Part shown: positions 2,346 to 46,400 of the stretch, piece after piece | How positions within the stretch are numbered: position 1 is the first letter of the stretch | Layout: the number at the start of each line of letters is the position of its first letter | Source of the DNA: Candidatus Poribacteria bacterium | Lineage (GTDB): Bacteria > Poribacteria > WGA-4E > WGA-3G | NCBI GenBank assembly: GCA_965215265.1 | Contig: OZ244048.1 | Location: 2,880,001-2,944,000 of the forward strand | DNA: 64,000 nucleotides | Direction: 5' to 3' | Notes under the pieces: model-generated | Told to the model about the DNA's origin: nothing | The model's database searches: none | What the model saw: only the letters and a program-made list of their open reading frames with translations | Position numbers and translations under genes: made by a program

Positions 2346-2996
2346 ATGAAAAAAACTGTCACCCGGTTCATGAAAACACGGAAAAACTCACACAGCGTGA
2401 AGTATCCAAGAAAACCGTTAGATGAGATTCTCGAATACCTACGCTTTACAAAGGTTGAGCCTTACATTCCAAAAGGCGTGCGTCTGTTAGATATTGGCAC
2501 CGGCGATGGACACTTTTTACACTACCTCAACGGGCACATCCACACCGCAGTCGGGATAGACCCGTATCTCTCTGAATCCACGAAAATCGGCAGCTACTAC
2601 CTCATCTCCGGTGCTTTCCCAGAAGACTTTGATTCAGACATTACCTTTGATGTGATTACCATATTAGCTGCACTTGAGCACATCCCCCATCATCGACTCC
2701 CTTGTGTTGTCAGCGCCTGTGCAAAATACCTGAAAACTGGAGGACAGGTCATTCTCACCGTCCCACATCCACGCGTGGACAGCATCCTGAAGCTGCTGAC
2801 GTATCTCCGGGTCTTTGTCGGATTTTCGACACATCAGCATCATGGATTCAACCCCGAATGTCTCCCAACCCTGTTCAACGGCTGGATACTTGTGAAAAAA
2901 CAACGCTGGGAACTCGGATGTAATTACCTCTTTATCTTTGAAAAACCGGCGAAGAAAGAGAATGAAATGGAAGGAATCCCCACGCAGGCATGTTAG
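2346..2996 (+). CDS. Class I SAM-dependent methyltransferase
   Basis: LLDIGTGDG motif I, FDVITILAALEH, LKTGGQVILTVP. The start may be the second ATG (2370). Confidence 0.85.
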   Translation: MKKTVTRFMKTRKNSHSVKYPRKPLDEILEYLRFTKVEPYIPKGVRLLDIGTGDGHFLHYLNGHIHTAVGIDPYLSESTKIGSYYLISGAFPEDFDSDITFDVITILAALEHIPHHRLPCVVSACAKYLKTGGQVILTVPHPRVDSILKLLTYLRVFVGFSTHQHHGFNPECLPTLFNGWILVKKQRWELGCNYLFIFEKPAKKENEMEGIPTQAC

Positions 2997-3549
2997 ATTC
3001 AGCTCCAAACAACTTATCACACGCACTCAACACGGCGACACCGAAGCGTCCCATCGCCTCGTTAGCAAATACCACCCCCGGCTGTATACTCACATCAACC
3101 GCCGTGTCAAAGAACCCGAGCTTGCCAAAGACTTGACACAAGAAACCTGGCTGAAAGCATTTCGCGCCATCCACACCTTCCGCGGGGACGCGGCGTTCTA
3201 TTCCTGGGTGTATCGCATCGCAGAGAACGTCATAACGAACTTTTTCCGTAAATAGACGCACGCCAGCGAGGCATACCGCCTTACCGAGACACATCCTTCT
3301 CCGTGTCAAGACCTGCTGCGAAAAGAACTCCGCCTTCAGATTCAGGTTGCCATCGAACACCTCACCCCGATGCGGAAACAGGTCTTCTGCCTCTATTATA
3401 GGGATGAGCTGTCTATCAAAGCAATAGCAGCGCGTTTAAGACGTTCCGAAGGCACTATCAAAACCCATCTGCGCACTGCCCGGCTCCAGCTCCAAGCGTC
3501 CCTGACCCCTTATCTGAACAATGTAGACACCGACATCTTAGGTAGGTGA
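2938..3549 (+). pseudogene. ECF sigma-70 factor with in-frame TAG between regions 2 and 4
   Basis: Region 2 (AKDLTQETWLKAF..FYSWVYRIAEN), then TAG at 3253, then in-frame region 4 (LTPMRKQVFCLYYRDELSIKAIAARLRRSEGTIKTHLRTAR) to TGA 3547-3549. Confidence 0.85.
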
Positions 3550-3903
3550 AACCTGCGCCACCTTTGGAATTGCAGCATGACGCAGTCGCCCGGCAACCCG
3601 GACAAAAGCCCGGAGACGGAGCTCGCTGTGAAGATTAAGTGCTGCCAACGCTGTGAGTCAGATTGCCGGGCAGACAACTTCAGAAAGGCATTCGGTAGCT
3701 TGTGTGGGAGGCAGGTTCACTTCGTTCTTCTGAATTTGTTCCGACGAGAATTGGAAAGATGAGCATGATACCGCCTGTATCTTGATAAGACGTTAGGCTG
3801 GCTACAAATGGCAAAATCTCGGTGGCAGAAGATTTGGCAGCGTGTCTGCGAACTTTTTCGTATAGTGCAGCCCATCAACGCATGATGTGTTGTCAATCAC
3901 TGT

Positions 3904-4145
3904 GTACATCTCGCCAGAGGGTTCTGATGCTATGATTCAAAACATCGGAAACCTCCGACGAGATTTATGCTAAGGTTATCAAAGCATAGAGCGGTAATAG
4001 GCTCCTATAGACAAAAGAACGAGATTTGTGCTTAGGTTTACATTGCAGCCATCGGTGTTGGGCTGCATCATACAAAAGAACGAGATTTGTACAGGATTTA
4101 ACATAGTAGCCTTTAACGTGCTGCCGTATACGAAAGAACGAGCAG
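3904..4145. repeat. Palindromic intergenic repeat plus ~60-bp degenerate direct repeats (AAAGAACGAGATTTGT)
   Basis: Hairpin ATCTCG..GAGG..GATG / CATC..CCTC..CGAGAT. The CGAG core recurs at ~3958, 4020, 4081 and 4139. Confidence 0.7.
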
Positions 4146-4147
4146 CC

Positions 4148-4298
4148 TTAACGCAATTCAAGCTGCTTCAGATTTATCCCTTTTTTGGAGAAAAAAGGTG
4201 AATGTATGTTCACTTTCGTTGATTTGTTGAAGTTAAGGTGGAAGATGTGATAAGATGAGTCACGTCTCCTAGGAATTGAGAGGTGTGCCGAGGATGTC
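4148..4298 (+). promoter_or_regulatory. Conserved ~150-nt non-coding leader or ncRNA candidate, copy 1
   Basis: Clearly homologous to 32661-32817: TTTATCCCTTTTTTGG..GAATGTATGTTCACTTTC..AGATGTGATAAGATGAGT..GAATTGAGAG..CCGAGGAT. Confidence 0.65.
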
Positions 4299-4436
4299 AC
4301 TAGCAATCCTTATTTTGTGACACTCTTGGGGTTAGCACATTATAGGGACGGATTGCCCAGAACGCAAAACACGCAGACAGAAATCTACCTTTGCCTTCCA
4401 GATAGCAATCCCCCGAAATATAAAGGAGAACATGAA

Positions 4437-4754
4437 ATGAAAATGTCTTTGTGCCAGATGATTGCGATTGTCTGTATCTTCGCAGTGGGATTCATGGCGG
4501 TTACACCGTTTTTGCTACAAGATGCCTATGGGGGCGCAGATCAGTATGATTATGATGCTTATAAGGTGTACTCTTGGGCAACTGGTGAGTTTATTGGTTA
4601 TTACATCGTAAGCGGTGGTTTGACATATACAGATCACTATAACTACTACCATTACCCCGGTAGTGAGGTAACAGCATGGGAGCACCGCCTGGCTTGGCCG
4701 AATGGGCATAGCACGAATGTCAATATGAACATTCTCGGTGTACGGTACTGGTAG
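4437..4754 (+). CDS. Small secreted Tyr/His/Trp-rich protein (105 aa)
   Basis: AAAGGAG RBS and a hydrophobic signal peptide ending ..QDAYG/G. The mature part is Tyr-rich. Confidence 0.75.
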   Translation: MKMSLCQMIAIVCIFAVGFMAVTPFLLQDAYGGADQYDYDAYKVYSWATGEFIGYYIVSGGLTYTDHYNYYHYPGSEVTAWEHRLAWPNGHSTNVNMNILGVRYW

Positions 4755-4833: not shown

Positions 4834-5519
4834 ATGAAAGTTTTGATAGTCACTACATGTTTAATATACGTTATACTTTTCGGGCTTATTCTCTATATGC
4901 ACTACGATACCAAGGCAATCCTCCAAAACTTGCCGCAGCCACCTATCCCGCAACGCGAAGTAGTTTCAGAAGAAAAAATACCAAGCGAAGTGAGAACTCC
5001 TTTCCATCAAGCAGAACAGACCTTAGAGGAGACCTTGCCAGTTACCCACACCCATGGCGATTCTCACGAGCAGACCGATTCTCATGGACACACACATCAC
5101 CACAACTCACTTGTGGAGCCAACGCCTTCTTTGGAATCTGATGTCGCACAACACACCGAAGAACCCGTTGAAGCCCCCCAAGTGGGGGGCAACTGCCCCC
5201 TGGTGTGGTGGCATGGAAAAGTGTAGGGCCAAATGGAACATTAGAGGTAGATAGGGAGGCTTTCCTTGCTGAGTTTGGAAATCATCCGAAAGCTCATACA
5301 TATTTAGTGTTACATAGAAAAATAAACATGGCTGACTCCTACACATACAGAGATATATACGAGTATATGGCGTTGGAGAAAGAGTTCACGCAGGATCCGA
5401 ATATATTGCCATCACACTTAGAAATGATGAGACAGAACGCGATAAAAAACCCTGATGGAAAACTTCCATCTTGGCGGTCACTGAAAAATAATCCGAATAT
5501 TAGGATAATAGAAAAATAA
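4834..5519 (+). pseudogene. Membrane-anchored His-rich protein with FGxxPxxHTY domain, split by a frameshift at a G6 run
   Basis: N-terminal TM helix and THTHGDSH..HGHTHHH. One extra G at 5184-5189 joins ORF 4834-5226 to 5205-5519 (VGGQLPPGVVAWK..AEFGNHPKAHTYL). Confidence 0.7.
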
Positions 5520-31885: not shown

Positions 31886-32470
31886 TCGCAAATATGTCTC
31901 GCGTTGCATCTCACTTTTCCATAGAGAGTCTTGTAAGAGGTCATGAGAACAATGAATAGATACTGTCATGTTAACATTTTGATTCGTTGTGTATCATCAA
32001 GCCGGATGGTAACTCGCTGGGCATCTGCTGCGAACGTTGTTGGAAACCTAGTCCTTCTTGAGAGGCTGCTGTCTGAACCTATGTTCTCAAGCCTCAGTTC
32101 ACCCCCCCCACCCTCACCTATCATGCGTTAAGGCTATTTCAGACTGTTTTCGGTGCAGTTTCCCGTATGATGCGGAGAAACCCCTCGTCCGCATGTATTC
32201 CGTTTCTTCAGAGACTACAAAGAGTCCCTTGGCACGTTTCCTTACCCGGTCGCTTCAAGGGCTATTTTTGTTGTATCGTTGCGCACCTTATCCACGCCGT
32301 GAACAAGTGGATGAAGCAGGTGACGCGGAGCCAATGTCAACACTTTTGTCAGAATCTCGTTAAAGAAGAGGAAACACATGCTGTCGCGGCAGCGTTCCAG
32401 AGGGACACAGCGCACCGGGAGTTGCGTCGGCATCTATCCGGCGAAGTGCTTGGTGGAGAAGCGGCGATGA
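31816..32470 (+). repeat. ~655-bp near-identical duplication, copy 1 (copy 2 at 35296-35951)
   Basis: Direct comparison shows a few SNPs and a differing C-tract. Confidence 0.92.
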
Positions 32471-32664
32471 AGGCGATTAGGGTGTTGGGTTCCAAATATG
32501 TAGACGTAGCAGTATTGCGTGCGTAGGGTACACGTTGGTTGTCGGAGATAGGGAAACGGCTCCGCATTCCGAAAGACACGGCGAAGTCACGCTGGTGGAA
32601 GATTCGTGAACGTGTTTACGAACATTTCGGTGTGCGGTTTCCACCCAAAAAGGGGAGTCCCTAA
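31943..32664 (+). pseudogene. Decayed ECF sigma-factor-like gene
   Basis: C-terminal region-4-like KAIRVLGSKYVDVAVLRA*GTRWLSEIGKRLRIPKDTAKSRWWKIRE, with TAG at 32524. The upstream part is frameshifted. Confidence 0.55.
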
Positions 32665-32817
32665 CGCGATTCAGGGTGCTTCAGGTTTATCCCTTTTTTG
32701 GAAACAAAAGAGGGAATGTATGTTCACTTTCATTTATTTCTTGATTGATTTTATAGCAGTAGATGTGATAAGATGAGTGATGTCTCCTGCGAATTGAGAG
32801 AGGCACCGAGGATATCT
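32661..32817 (+). promoter_or_regulatory. Conserved ~150-nt non-coding leader or ncRNA candidate, copy 2
   Basis: Homologous to 4148-4298. Contains the hairpin CCCTTTTTTG-GAAA-CAAAAGAGGG. Confidence 0.65.
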
Positions 32818-32998
32818 CCGACATCCATCGACGCAGTCCTGCTATAGAATCGGTATGACAGCATTGGTTTTCTATTCTATCACAAATATAGGTATGGAAG
32901 AAAACTCGCGCCGTATATAAAAGGGGAACGTTTTCCCGTTGTCGCATAAAACACTGTTTTCTGGGACTTTTAACTAGCACCTCACAAAGGATTTTTAA

Positions 32999-33652
32999 AT
33001 GTTTAAACGAAACTGGCTTTGGGCACTTGCTTTACTCCTTCTCATCGGCATCGGAAGCTTTGTGCTTTTAAAATCTAAAGCACCGCTGAAACCGATAAAA
33101 GTCTATAAGATGATAAAACCAGAACCGGAACCGGGTCCAACAAAGACAAGCACAAGCGACACAGAAATCACCACACCACATAGCCATGAACCCAACGATA
33201 ACCACCGCCATGGGCATTCCCATGAGAAGGTGTCGCCCTCCCACGTCGTGGAACCTGTCTCCAACGATGGTGAGTATGATTGGCGAAATGATGGCGTGTT
33301 TGATGTATCCGAACAGCAAGAAGAGGCCTGGAAACCAACGGATCCAGAACGTGAATTGCCTGACGCTGCTGAGGATACCTACCCACCTCGAGACTGGCAC
33401 AAAACAGAAGATATCGAGTTGCGCGCCGAGTATTTTTACGCCCAACTCCTCAAGCAATTTGGAGACATTCCAGAAGTTCATACTGTTGGCGAATACAATT
33501 TAAACGTTGCAAAAGGTGTGCCGCAAACGCTTCGTCAAATGGAAGACTACCTTGAAGCAAACTATCATCTCTTTCGGAATGATAAAAATAAAAAAGCCCT
33601 CGAAGAATTCTATAAGCTAAAAGCATTAGGTGCAACAATGGGGGCGAAATAA
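32999..33652 (+). CDS. Membrane-anchored His-rich protein with QLLKQFGDIPEVH domain
   Basis: N-terminal TM helix, HSHEPNDNHRHGHSH, and a motif shared with the neighbouring gene. Confidence 0.78.
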   Translation: MFKRNWLWALALLLLIGIGSFVLLKSKAPLKPIKVYKMIKPEPEPGPTKTSTSDTEITTPHSHEPNDNHRHGHSHEKVSPSHVVEPVSNDGEYDWRNDGVFDVSEQQEEAWKPTDPERELPDAAEDTYPPRDWHKTEDIELRAEYFYAQLLKQFGDIPEVHTVGEYNLNVAKGVPQTLRQMEDYLEANYHLFRNDKNKKALEEFYKLKALGATMGAK

Positions 33653-35259: not shown

Positions 35260-35951
35260 ACAGACATCTTCGTATGCTTTTCTTGCATTTTCATGTGACA
35301 AAAACTGGTTTAGGGGGTATAATTATAAATAATCTGATTTCAAAAGGGCAATTTTCAGATTTTAATCGCAAATATGTCTCGTGTTGCCCTTCATTTTTCC
35401 ATAGAGAGTCTTGTAAGAGGTCATGAGAACAATGAATAGATACTGTCATGTTAACATTTTGATTCGTTGTGTATCATCAAGCCGGATGGTAACTCGCTGG
35501 GCATCTGCTGCGAACGTTGTTGGAAACCTAGTCCTTCTTGAGAGGCTGCTGTCTGAACCTATGTTCTCAAGCCTCAGTTCACCCCCCCCCCACCTCACCT
35601 ATCATGTGTTAAGGCTATTTCAGACTGTTTTCGGTGCAGTTTCCCGTATGATGCGGAGAAACCCCTCGTCCGCATGTATTCCGTTTCTTCAGAGACTACA
35701 AAGAGTCCCTTGGCACGTTTCCTTACCCGGTCGCTTCAAGGGCTATTTTTGTTGTATCGTTGCGCACCTTATCCACGCCGTGAACAAGTGGATGAAACAG
35801 GTGACGCGGAGCCAATGTCAACACTTCTGTCAGAATCTCGTTAAAGAAGAGGAAACACATGCTGTCGCGGCAGCGTTCCAGAGGGACACAGCGCACCGGG
35901 AGTTGCGTCGGCATCTGTCCGGCGACGTGCTTGGTGGAGAAGCGGCGATGA
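35260..35951 (+). repeat. Copy 2 of the promoter plus sigma-remnant segment, truncated before region 4
   Basis: Matches 31816-32470. The first ~105 bp also match ~46780-46886. Confidence 0.9.
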
Positions 35952-36109
35952 CGGAGGATTGCCAGAGAAAGCCTCTCTGCCTTCCTACCGCAATCCCATT
36001 TTCACGAAACTTGCTTTCTATTGGTAAGTCTCTTCCTTGTGCACAGGGAATGAATCGAGCAAACCGTGAATCTTCGGCGCGGAATCTATTAACTTAGCAG
36101 GAGGAAAAA

Positions 36110-45859: not shown

Positions 45860-46098
45860 ATTATCTAACTCCTTGTTATTCTTTATCCCGTTACGGAATA
45901 AACTTGACTTGACTTTATAGTTCCGACTAAGTTTCCTAACAGACTACGTTTTCAACCTTTTTTGCCAATTCGTCAGACGTGCACACAGATGTTCAAGAAA
46001 ATGAAATCGTGTTTGTGAGTCACTTCCCAAAAAATGCAGTGCATTCACAAACTGCCAACGGACACGTCAGCTCATTCTTTCACTTTTAAAGAACACTT

Positions 46099-46400
46099 TT
46101 GCTCTCTTCGCAAAAGCTTATTTTAAGTATACCTCAAGAGGAAGTGTTTGTCAAATTAAAAAGATGCGGAATACTATGGAAACAGCTGACTCAATTCTCA
46201 GGCTTAGAGGGGCCTCTCACCACGAGACGGGCCCCCTACACAATCTATTTCCAGAACTCACCTTGCTATTGGATTCGGGCAATGGACTTTATTCCTTACT
46301 TTTGGAACCAACGAGACGGAGAGCGGTAATCAATATTTTGGAAGGAACATGTTTTATCTCCTTTGGAATCGGCGTTCCAGTTCATCGCGTCCCATTTCAA
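46099..46400 (+). pseudogene. Possible remnant of a type IIG (Eco57I-like) restriction-modification enzyme C-terminus
   Basis: IYFQNSPCYWIRAMDFIPYFWNQRDGE. The family assignment is from recalled resemblance only. Confidence 0.35.

Follow-up and report, generated by a model that had tools for sequence, protein, structure and literature searches.

The non-coding element at 4148-4298 of the window, by which we mean the whole 64,000-nt stretch analysed (G000:C1:2880001-2944000, from the single contig of a genome of 4.83 Mb with 48% G+C), is one of about 18 related copies in its genome, two of which lie in the window. The element looks real and functional, and its most plausible reading is a cassette that accompanies sigma modules and combines a hairpin with a housekeeping promoter and a leader. 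Judged from the sequence patterns, we consider this composite reading somewhat better than an even bet. In the text below, the copy at 4148-4298 is copy A and the copy at 32661-32817 is copy B.

A repeated element at a fixed position

Copies A and B shared 79.7% identity over 158 nt in BLAST (E 9e-33), and a pairwise alignment of 4100-4360 with 32610-32880 placed the shared core between approximately 4137/32650 and approximately 4300/32815, with little similarity beyond. The two methods thus confirmed the first-pass annotation, which had described the pair as homologous with unalignable flanks. Upstream of copy A, alignment fails because approximately 3940-4145, between a sigma gene remnant and the element, is filled by three to four units of a REP-like repeat of about 60 nt that occurs genome-wide. 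This repeat gave 319 BLAST matches in the genome; its units open with ACGAGATTTGT, and its CGAGATTT occurs 404 + 382 times, compared with about 74 expected per strand. Tandem Repeats Finder returned no rows for 3700-4400, and the diverged REP-like units there were found by BLAST. Within the core, the first hairpin is kept in both copies despite substitutions (CCTTTTTT-GGAG-AAAAAAGG in A and CCCTTTTTTG-GAAA-CAAAAGAGGG in B), and the two blocks that had been called invariant are indeed the same in A and B, namely GAATGTATGTTCACTTTC (4200-4217 / 32714-32731) and AGATGTGATAAGATGAGT (4244-4261 / 32762-32779). The features of the two copies are as follows.

2938..3252, + strand: sigma gene remnant upstream of A, region 2 only (Pfam Sigma70_r2, E 9.4e-18; tblastn with the 262-aa sigma, E 1.4e-6)
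3940..4145, + strand: REP-like repeat units, outside the element (BLAST)
4137..4151, + strand: 5′ edge of A, what is left of a sigma ORF's final codons and stop (TAA 4149-4151), which aligns with ...AACGAGAAGCCCTAA, the end of intact sigma ORFs
4179..4198, + strand: hairpin 1 of A, CCTTTTTT-GGAG-AAAAAAGG, 8 bp, 100% complementary
4200..4217, + strand: subfamily block of A, GAATGTATGTTCACTTTC, at about -62 to -45 from the predicted start (alignment)
4227..4232, + strand: -35-like hexamer of A, TTGAAG, 18 nt before the -10 (sequence)
4240..4270, + strand: inverted repeat or hairpin 2 of A, GGAAGATGTGA ... TCACGTCTCCT, which brackets the -10 (pairing, covariation)
4248..4256, + strand: extended -10 of A, TG-a-TAAGAT (alignment)
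4262..4283, + strand: predicted message start of A, ACGUCUCCU...GAAUUGAGAGG, with the start site placed by TCTCCT conservation
4437..4754, + strand: first gene after A, whose small product has a hydrophobic segment at its N-terminus, MKMSLCQMIAIVCIFAVGF... (ORF list, hydropathy)
32290..32664, + strand: broken sigma gene upstream of B, stop TAA 32662-32664 (63% identity, split ORFs)
32691..32714, + strand: hairpin 1 of B, CCCTTTTTTG-GAAA-CAAAAGAGGG, terminator-like by scan
32745..32774, + strand: promoter-like core of B, with TTGATT 32745-32750, an 18-nt spacer, TG 32766-32767 and TAAGAT 32769-32774
32756..32790, + strand: inverted repeat of B, GCAGTAGATGTGA ... TGATGTCTCCTGC, with TCTCCT 32783-32788
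32999..33652, + strand: first gene after B, 217 aa, with an N-terminal membrane anchor and no Pfam family (ORF list, hydropathy)

The ORF list contains no intact sigma ORF upstream of copy A, and the sigma gene of copy B retains residues 68-190 only, with one in-frame TAG and the N-terminal third missing. The first gene after copy A has a Shine-Dalgarno (SD) sequence, AAGGAG/AGGAGA, at 4423-4428, and its product (4437..4754) had no Pfam match.

The first-pass annotation had proposed a genome-wide search for further copies and, with BLAST, an extension to relatives. The search within the genome revealed the family: an nhmmer profile gave 18 matches at E<=4e-5, a covariance model also gave 18, and a second profile iteration added one partial copy. 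Identity to copy A ranges across the family from 93% down to about 70%, and the closest copy (93%) lies 5.7 kb upstream of the window within a tandemly duplicated module. The earlier remark that the element fitted no recognised RNA family also stands, as Rfam models found nothing in the window at gathering scores, nor, at E<=1, in four loci bearing copies.

The description of a non-coding element with a fixed place before genes holds across the family, since the element lies 3′ of a sigma gene or remnant in nine of the 18 copies and 5′ of a co-oriented ORF in 17. In the former nine copies, an ECF-like sigma gene or its remnant is directly upstream and the element begins at the sigma stop codon; three of these sigmas are intact with 190-194 aa (Pfam Sigma70_ECF), one is intact with 262 aa (Sigma70_r2 + r4_2), and five are broken or partial, including those of both A and B. 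No sigma remnant lies upstream of the remaining nine copies. The sigma ORF's final codons with their stop (...PPKNEKP*) make up the 5′ edge of the element, which is recognisable even in sigma-less copies. At least four copies lie in divergent intergenic regions without a co-oriented upstream gene, yet the element and intact downstream ORFs are kept there. Downstream, the next ORF of at least 70 aa is on the same strand in 17/18 copies; the exception is c892, which fits the cassette reading poorly and has two convergent ORFs in front of it, including AhpC/TSA. Most of the proteins encoded downstream begin with a hydrophobic anchor or signal and belong to no Pfam family; they include a few weak paralogous families that turn up repeatedly, and none of the genes after the element matched an anti-sigma Pfam family. 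A stretch of 150-400 nt carrying the predicted housekeeping-type promoter separates these genes from the sigma genes, and many modules have lost the sigma gene. We also considered a small ORF from the ATG in TAAGATGAGT and rejected it: codon 6 is TAG in A and c2878, and the ATG is absent from the 2411, 449x, 1897 and 1903 copies and from the loci of genus g3.

The relatives that we compared were Candidatus Poribacteria MAGs, reached via the sigma protein and the covariance model. By BLAST, none of 40 relatives, including one other genome of the same genus, had a match to the element at the DNA level. The covariance model detected copies in all three genomes of the sister genus g2 (3, 1 and 5 copies) and weak matches in 2/27 genomes of genus g5; under stricter filters, it detected none in 27 genomes of genus g3 nor in the same-genus genome G001, where the sigma family is absent at E<=1e-10. 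In other Poribacteria genera, sigma orthologues with only 36-44% identity are followed by the same element layout, and the inverted repeat is kept in genera g1, g2 and g3. Compared with four-fold degenerate sites of the adjacent gene, there was no excess conservation over the whole element (0.70-0.75 versus 0.74-0.81, three intact-sigma paralogues). The first 75 nt or so are better conserved, with 68/75 aligned bases matching between c2878 and c3555 in a hand count. The copies that precede two WD40 paralogues with 38% identity between their proteins each show 76-79% identity with copy B, a similarity to which gene conversion between copies could have contributed. Constraint on the element layout is visible at longer range, between genera.

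A predicted housekeeping promoter within the element

After the sigma stop codon, the element consists of a spacer of about 25 nt, hairpin 1 (core CCCTTTTTTGG-loop-CCAAAAAAGGG), an 18-nt subfamily block, TTGAnn, a spacer of 17-18 nt, TGnTAnnnT, 8 nt and TCTCCTGCGAATTGAGAGG. An inverted repeat surrounds the -10, formed by AGGAGAyGTGn, which occupies the last 11-13 nt of the spacer, and nCACrTCTCCT, which occupies the 11-13 nt after the hexamer. The GAATGTATGTTCACTTTC block is invariant or has one change in the eight closest copies and is swapped for other sequence in the 3930/3925, 449x and 2411/1897/1903 subfamilies.

We examined the promoter-like core in 32 sequences anchored on the hexamer, 17 of them copies from this genome and the other 15 taken from behind sigma orthologues in further Poribacteria MAGs of at least four genera. 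A TG stands one base before the -10 in 30/32 sequences, and the anchor pattern did not demand it. In 28/32, a -35 hexamer matching TTGACA at 4/6 or more positions stands 17-18 nt upstream, the exceptions being c892, c3555, c799 and c2411. The -10 hexamer takes six forms (TAAGAT, TAAAAT, TAATAT, TATACT, TATCAT and TATAAT), with differences confined to positions 3-5; since the anchor pattern demanded TAnnnT, the conservation of T1, A2 and T6 rests on unanchored MAFFT alignments. In the unanchored alignment of 17 copies, G130 and T132 are invariant and T137 is conserved in at least 90%. The spacer sequences of the promoter are completely different between genera. The sigma orthologues of genera g5 and g6 are followed by neither the inverted repeat nor a positional TCTCC, yet TTGACA-17-TGaTATAAT or TTGATA-17-TATAAT follows there. 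The sole rRNA operon of the genome has TTGACA-17-TATAAT, as do about 25 copied rrn leaders, and a sigma-70-type promoter of this form is therefore in use by the organism. A consensus promoter scan with a threshold of 9/12 hexamer matches found no site at A or B, each of which scores 8/12. We rejected a sigma-54 (-24/-12) promoter, as no GG-N10-GC was seen in register by eye.

Extended -10 promoters of the primary sigma (TGnTATAAT) are known from E. coli and B. subtilis, and the element has the same TG, the same TAnnnT with free positions 3-5 and a TTGACA-like hexamer 17-18 nt upstream. The sequence points to AGATGTGATAAGATGAGT, the second of the two blocks reported as invariant, being an extended -10, TGnTAAGAT, of the housekeeping type. 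In contrast to such promoters, the one predicted here lies inside a conserved cassette of about 150 nt that occurs about 18 times in one genome; this cassette has a hairpin near -75, a conserved transcribed start and an inverted repeat, one arm of which is made up of the TG and spacer. We infer promoter activity and the position of the start site from these motifs.

Two covarying hairpins and the predicted message start

The first-pass annotation had proposed a covariation analysis, and shuffle tests revealed that the pairing of the hairpins is kept through compensatory changes. In an unfitted alignment of 13 copies from this genome, 91.5% of the cells of helix 1 and 86.3% of those of helix 2 were paired (88.7% for both helices), compared with 47-60% in slid registers. 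The same alignment held 15 double-change cells versus 7.5+/-2.3 in shuffles (0/500) and gave a covariation score of 0.270 versus 0.227 (5/500). When genus g2 was added, 13 pairs changed on both sides versus 8.9 in shuffles (2/500), the covariation score was 0.299 versus 0.183 (0/500), and all five measures were reached by 0-2 of 500 shuffles, although this alignment of 28 distinct rows was aligned to its own model and so leans towards structure. Because the copies are related, none of these figures from either alignment is a probability. In the model-fitted alignment, 9/11 pairs of helix 1 and 4/13 of helix 2 are double-changed. The helix 2 pair beside the loop is A-T in g1, T-A in g2 and C-G in g3, and a G-C pair of this helix has become U-A in c799 and c1783. 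Helix 2 contains 58 G-U versus 18 A-C cells, much of the excess coming from two columns inherited within groups, and this excess hints at an RNA on the + strand. If hairpin 2 acts as an RNA hairpin, at least some transcription must begin ahead of the proposed promoter.

The stem of hairpin 1 is AU-rich, no U-tract adjoins it, and a T-rich stretch begins 8-20 nt past it. Hairpin 1 of B passes a lenient terminator scan (11 pairs, 4 GC, tail ATGTATGTTC), whereas that of A does not. Hairpin 1 does not look like a canonical terminator, and at least four copies in divergent regions have nothing upstream to terminate. Of the alternatives raised earlier, a free-standing sRNA is unlikely because a terminator-like site is absent after the start, while a structured leader, or an operator formed by the inverted repeat at the -10, may still apply.

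TCTCCT stands at a fixed 8 nt after the -10 in 26-29/32 sequences, and a transcription start 6-8 nt past the hexamer would give an RNA opening with ACrUCUCCU. We discarded the idea of a general rule in this genome that TCTCC follows the -10: the excess at offsets 8-10 is about what some 15 family copies give, and the longer motif is almost confined to family copies. For 22 loci, leaders were predicted from the putative start to the first start codon preceded by an SD, with lengths of 30-253 nt (limit <=260 nt). At least 4 nt of UCUCC was paired with the SD window in the minimum free energy (MFE) fold of 14/22 predicted leaders, with a probability >0.9 in 12, though CU-rich motifs of any kind would be predicted to pair with an SD. 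For copy A, the MFE and centroid folds both predict a pairing of TCTCCT with AGGAGA at 4423-4428. Eight of the 22 leaders lack UCUCCU-SD pairing, including that of copy B, whose predicted start pairs locally with GAGAGAGG. The copies with a mutated motif (c3555, c799 and c1783) all have weak SDs and pairing in none. Extending the RNA upstream by 45 or 130 nt raised the mean predicted SD accessibility from 0.17 to 0.39 or 0.38, respectively, with a gain of >0.2 in 8 (+45 nt) and 11 (+130 nt) of the 22 leaders and never an equal fall. The leader folds of A and B showed no extra stability over shuffles (z -0.05 and -0.18).

Taken together, these patterns suggest a putative mechanism in which the cassette would serve as the intergenic control region of a paralogous Poribacteria sigma module, starting from the stop of the ECF-like sigma gene. 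An AU-rich RNA hairpin would mark the 3′ end of the upstream unit as a weak terminator, insulator or 3′-end stabiliser, and a short subfamily-specific block would follow. A sigma-70-type promoter (TTGAnn, 17-18 nt, extended -10 TGnTAnnnT) would then give a message with the conserved start 5′-ACrUCUCCU and drive the next co-oriented genes, which mostly encode small N-terminally anchored or signal proteins without a known family. This promoter would still drive the downstream genes where the sigma gene has decayed, for example at both copies in the window. The UCUCCU start may pair with the SD AGGAGA of the first gene and close the leader, leading to damped translation or 5′-end protection, and the upstream arm AGGAGAyGTG may either form half of an operator or compete as a pairing partner of UCUCCU. 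We infer these roles of the two hairpins and of UCUCCU from their conservation and predicted pairing.

The cassette may even be a two-isoform switch, in which promoter choice would set whether the first downstream gene is translated; we regard this extension as a speculative and rather unlikely one. A short isoform from the internal housekeeping promoter would start in hairpin 2 at ACrUCUCCU, and its free anti-SD end would fold onto the AGGAGA of the gene and keep it silent. A long isoform, produced by read-through from the ECF-dependent promoter upstream of sigma, would also carry the AGGAGAyGTG arm; this SD-like decoy would capture UCUCCU in a local hairpin of 11-13 bp and free the real SD. 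The constitutive message would thus be silent until the sigma factor is active. If true, the two-isoform model would tie translation to the choice of promoter in an unusual way; if untrue, the cassette would be an ordinary though nicely conserved intergenic control region.

Cis-acting anti-SD leaders include the rpoS leader and the ROSE and fourU RNA thermometers. Likewise, the SD of the first gene is the predicted partner of a CU-rich leader stretch here (14/22). However, the anti-SD of the element lies at the extreme predicted 5′ end, its pairing spans 20-250 nt around independent hairpins, and a second, SD-like partner stands just upstream of the predicted start.

Rival readings and known systems

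The sigma family has a conserved ECF-type promoter of its own, GTGACC-N17-CGTC(T/A)TG, 35-60 nt upstream of the sigma start. It is present upstream of the sigma genes of this genome and in 18/18 orthologous loci inspected, with variants (GTAATC or TCGACC for GTGACC, and GGTCTTG in g5), a T-rich spacer of 17 nt and sometimes a tandem duplicate. A genome scan with the T-rich-spacer form found seven sites (799914, 2877572/2877664/2877790, 3554799/3554871 and 4467668), all upstream of sigma genes or fragments and none within or after an element. As the motif occurs upstream of sigma and never in the element, the earlier suggestion of a cognate ECF promoter is left unsupported.

Several other readings of the element should be weighed against the cassette. 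That it holds the promoter or operator for the neighbouring ECF sigma, as the first-pass annotation had it, we now consider very unlikely. The element does adjoin sigma genes, CACGTCTCC of the closest copies includes CGTC, the usual ECF -10 core, and the block between hairpin 1 and the -35 varies by subfamily as a specificity determinant might. However, the family has its GTGACC-N17-CGTC(T/A)TG promoter upstream of sigma, where alone the scan finds the T-rich form; CGTC is not conserved in the element, being TGTC, TATC, CATC or CTTC in other copies, and a GACC-like -35 is missing 17 nt upstream of it. Moreover, the region by which TG and TAnnnT are recognised is absent from ECF sigmas, and this also counts against this reading. 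An origin as a mobile or selfish repeat (MITE, REP or IS end) or as a decayed copy of an rRNA anti-termination leader seems scarcely probable at all. The element is multi-copy and species-restricted at the DNA level (0/40 relatives by BLAST), the genome is rich in REP-like repeats and has about 25 rrn promoter-leader copies, and hairpin 1 of A together with TGTTC resembles rrn boxB-boxA (p about 0.003, in copy A only). In contrast, an inverted-repeat search found internal hairpins only and no terminal inverted repeats, the orientation is fixed relative to both neighbours, and the 5′ edge is formed by the last codons of the sigma ORF itself; the absence of terminal inverted repeats and the fixed gene context speak against the end of a mobile element, which the earlier annotation had named as the finding that would overturn its claim. 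Against the rrn leader, the nhmmer family profile gave one match at -5.8 bits, and Smith-Waterman alignment against shuffles was non-significant for 10/12 copies (p 0.05-0.85), while the nominal values of A (0.003) and c3930 (0.017) fail correction for 12 tests. By both nhmmer and local alignment, the element is not detectably a decayed rrn-leader copy.

Two further readings remain. A pure RNA element, which we think unlikely, would have no internal promoter: the sigma and downstream genes would form one transcript from the ECF-type promoter, two hairpins would serve in processing, stability or translational coupling, and TGnTAnnnT would be the conserved loop of hairpin 2. Both helices keep their pairing through double-sided changes, the G-U and A-C cells of helix 2 (58 versus 18) fit a + strand RNA, the only ECF-type promoter of the module is upstream of sigma, and read-through is plausible for a hairpin 1 without a U-tract. 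However, the "loop" obeys the extended -10 rule (TG; T1, A2 and T6; free 3-5) and has a TTGACA-like hexamer 17-18 nt upstream (28/32), and g5 and g6 keep a consensus promoter here without the inverted repeat. Additionally, half of the copies (9/18) have no sigma remnant, and in at least four divergent regions the element and downstream ORFs are intact without any upstream co-oriented gene. Alternatively, a promoter with an operator could be envisaged, in which AGGAGAyGTG-N9-12-CACrTCTCCT binds a dimeric repressor that closes the roughly 18 modules and the "message start" is the downstream half-site. An inverted repeat centred on the -10 with arm centres about 21 bp, or two helical turns, apart would suit such a dimer; the repeat is conserved in g1, g2 and g3, and a multi-copy site is expected of a regulon. 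Nevertheless, we judge an operator distinctly unlikely. The arms are unequal, with TCTCCT in 26-29/32 while the upstream arm varies widely; the changes keep Watson-Crick or G-U pairing and not half-site identity, as in the G-C to U-A change of c799 and c1783 and the A-T, C-G or T-A pair beside the loop; and no regulator gene is consistently linked except sigma.

Set against known systems, the element is a variant, specific to this lineage, of familiar kinds of signal and does not form a class of its own; what is unusual about it is the inverted repeat embedded in it and a message start that resembles an anti-SD. In operons of an ECF sigma and its anti-sigma, the ECF promoter is autoregulated. 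The modules here likewise have a conserved ECF-type promoter upstream and genes for membrane-anchored proteins after sigma, but they differ in the gap of 150-400 nt with its own housekeeping-type promoter, in the lack of any anti-sigma Pfam match and in the frequent loss of sigma. Poribacteria are uncultured sponge symbionts, and in the literature on Poribacteria combined with sigma factors or ECF, the titles and opening parts of abstracts yielded nothing on gene control in this group. The cassette offers a testable handle on it, in the form of a promoter consensus, a conserved message start and two covarying hairpins across about 18 modules for lineage-specific exported proteins.

The copied rrn promoter and anti-termination leaders of the same genome gave about 25 BLAST matches, one of them in the window at 46020-46161 (- strand). 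They are also multi-copy promoter-leader cassettes before genes for exported proteins; together with the element, they suggest that this genome re-uses ready-made promoter-leader cassettes before secreted-protein genes. The rrn leaders have consensus TTGACA/TATAAT followed by boxB-boxA, whereas the element has its hairpin before the promoter, is linked to sigma and shows no significant similarity to them. The REP/BIME repeats are likewise species-restricted, hairpin-forming and intergenic, and they adjoin copy A and several other copies. In contrast to the element, with its approximately 18 copies in fixed orientation and gene context, the REP-like units number in the hundreds and occur in either orientation and in tandem.

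Sigma modules and their upstream promoters

The genus has just one other genome, G001 (4.0 Mb, 95% complete), in which neither BLAST nor the covariance model matched the element, and the intact 190-aa ECF-like sigma protein had no match at E<=1e-10. Since both lack a counterpart in G001, we regard the sigma modules, judging by these sequence searches, as accessory. The sigma genes are preceded by a promoter of the ECF type, (G)TGACC/TCGACC-N17-CGTCTTG, whose spacer is rich in T. This promoter is also conserved at 18 orthologous loci in other Poribacteria, and two of the sigma genes have it in two or three tandem copies. Its sites are as follows (genome positions refer to the same contig):

Locus L027, about 2668-2910 (genome 2877572-2877815)
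Genome 3554799-3554900
Genome 799914
Genome 4467668

The end of the sigma ORF

A REP-like repeat of about 60 nt, with the unit pattern ACGAGATTTGTGCTAAGGTTTACATTGCAGC...GCTGCA.TATACAAAAGA, occupies window 3940-4145 and recurs throughout the genome (319 BLAST matches), frequently in tandem arrays; its CGAGATTT motif was counted 404 and 382 times, where about 74 per strand would be expected. Because the unit opens with bases similar to the final codons of the sigma ORF (AAAAACGAGAAG), the junction at the end of this ORF seems to be a site at which REP-like units are placed. The ORF end before copy B of the element (window 32645-32656, CCAAAAAGGGGA) could also pair, at 92% complementarity, with the 5′ arm of the first AU-rich hairpin of that copy (window 32690-32701), and this arm thus has two possible partners, one of them within the coding region. 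Such a layout is attenuator-like, but in sequence of such low complexity the complementarity may have arisen by chance.

Possibly mosaic leader segments

Copy B is followed by a leader segment, and copies of the rRNA promoter and boxB-boxA leader family also occur in the genome (about 25 BLAST matches):

Window 32839-32880, leader segment AGCATTGGTTTTCTATTCTATCACAAA, after copy B
Window 46020-46161, - strand, copy of the rRNA promoter/boxB-boxA leader family
Genome 2039413-2039672, true rrn leader

The AGCATTGGTTTTCTATTCTATCACAAA segment also follows rrn-leader copies at genome 2298775, 2629304, 2698422 and 4670600 with 88-90% identity, and the leaders of loci L071, L075 and L076 from another Poribacteria genus contain a similar TGGTTTTCTATTGT(G/A)TCACAAA. 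This recurrence suggests that leader modules are assembled as mosaics. A further rRNA promoter/boxB-boxA leader copy lies 430 nt past a half-copy of the element at genome 1072574.

Coding features near element copies

Three kilobases past copy B, a sigma-like stretch (window 35771-35953) lies inside ORF 35423-36097, an open frame of 224-226 aa, and shares 51% identity with residues 68-128 of the 190-aa sigma. Several element copies are followed by members of one hypothetical-protein family, in which an N-terminal anchor precedes Y..(D/E)TK.F...LP and a stretch rich in His and acidic residues:

Window 4834-5516, member seemingly divided between ORFs 4834-5226 and 5205-5519
Locus L036, member
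Locus L037, member
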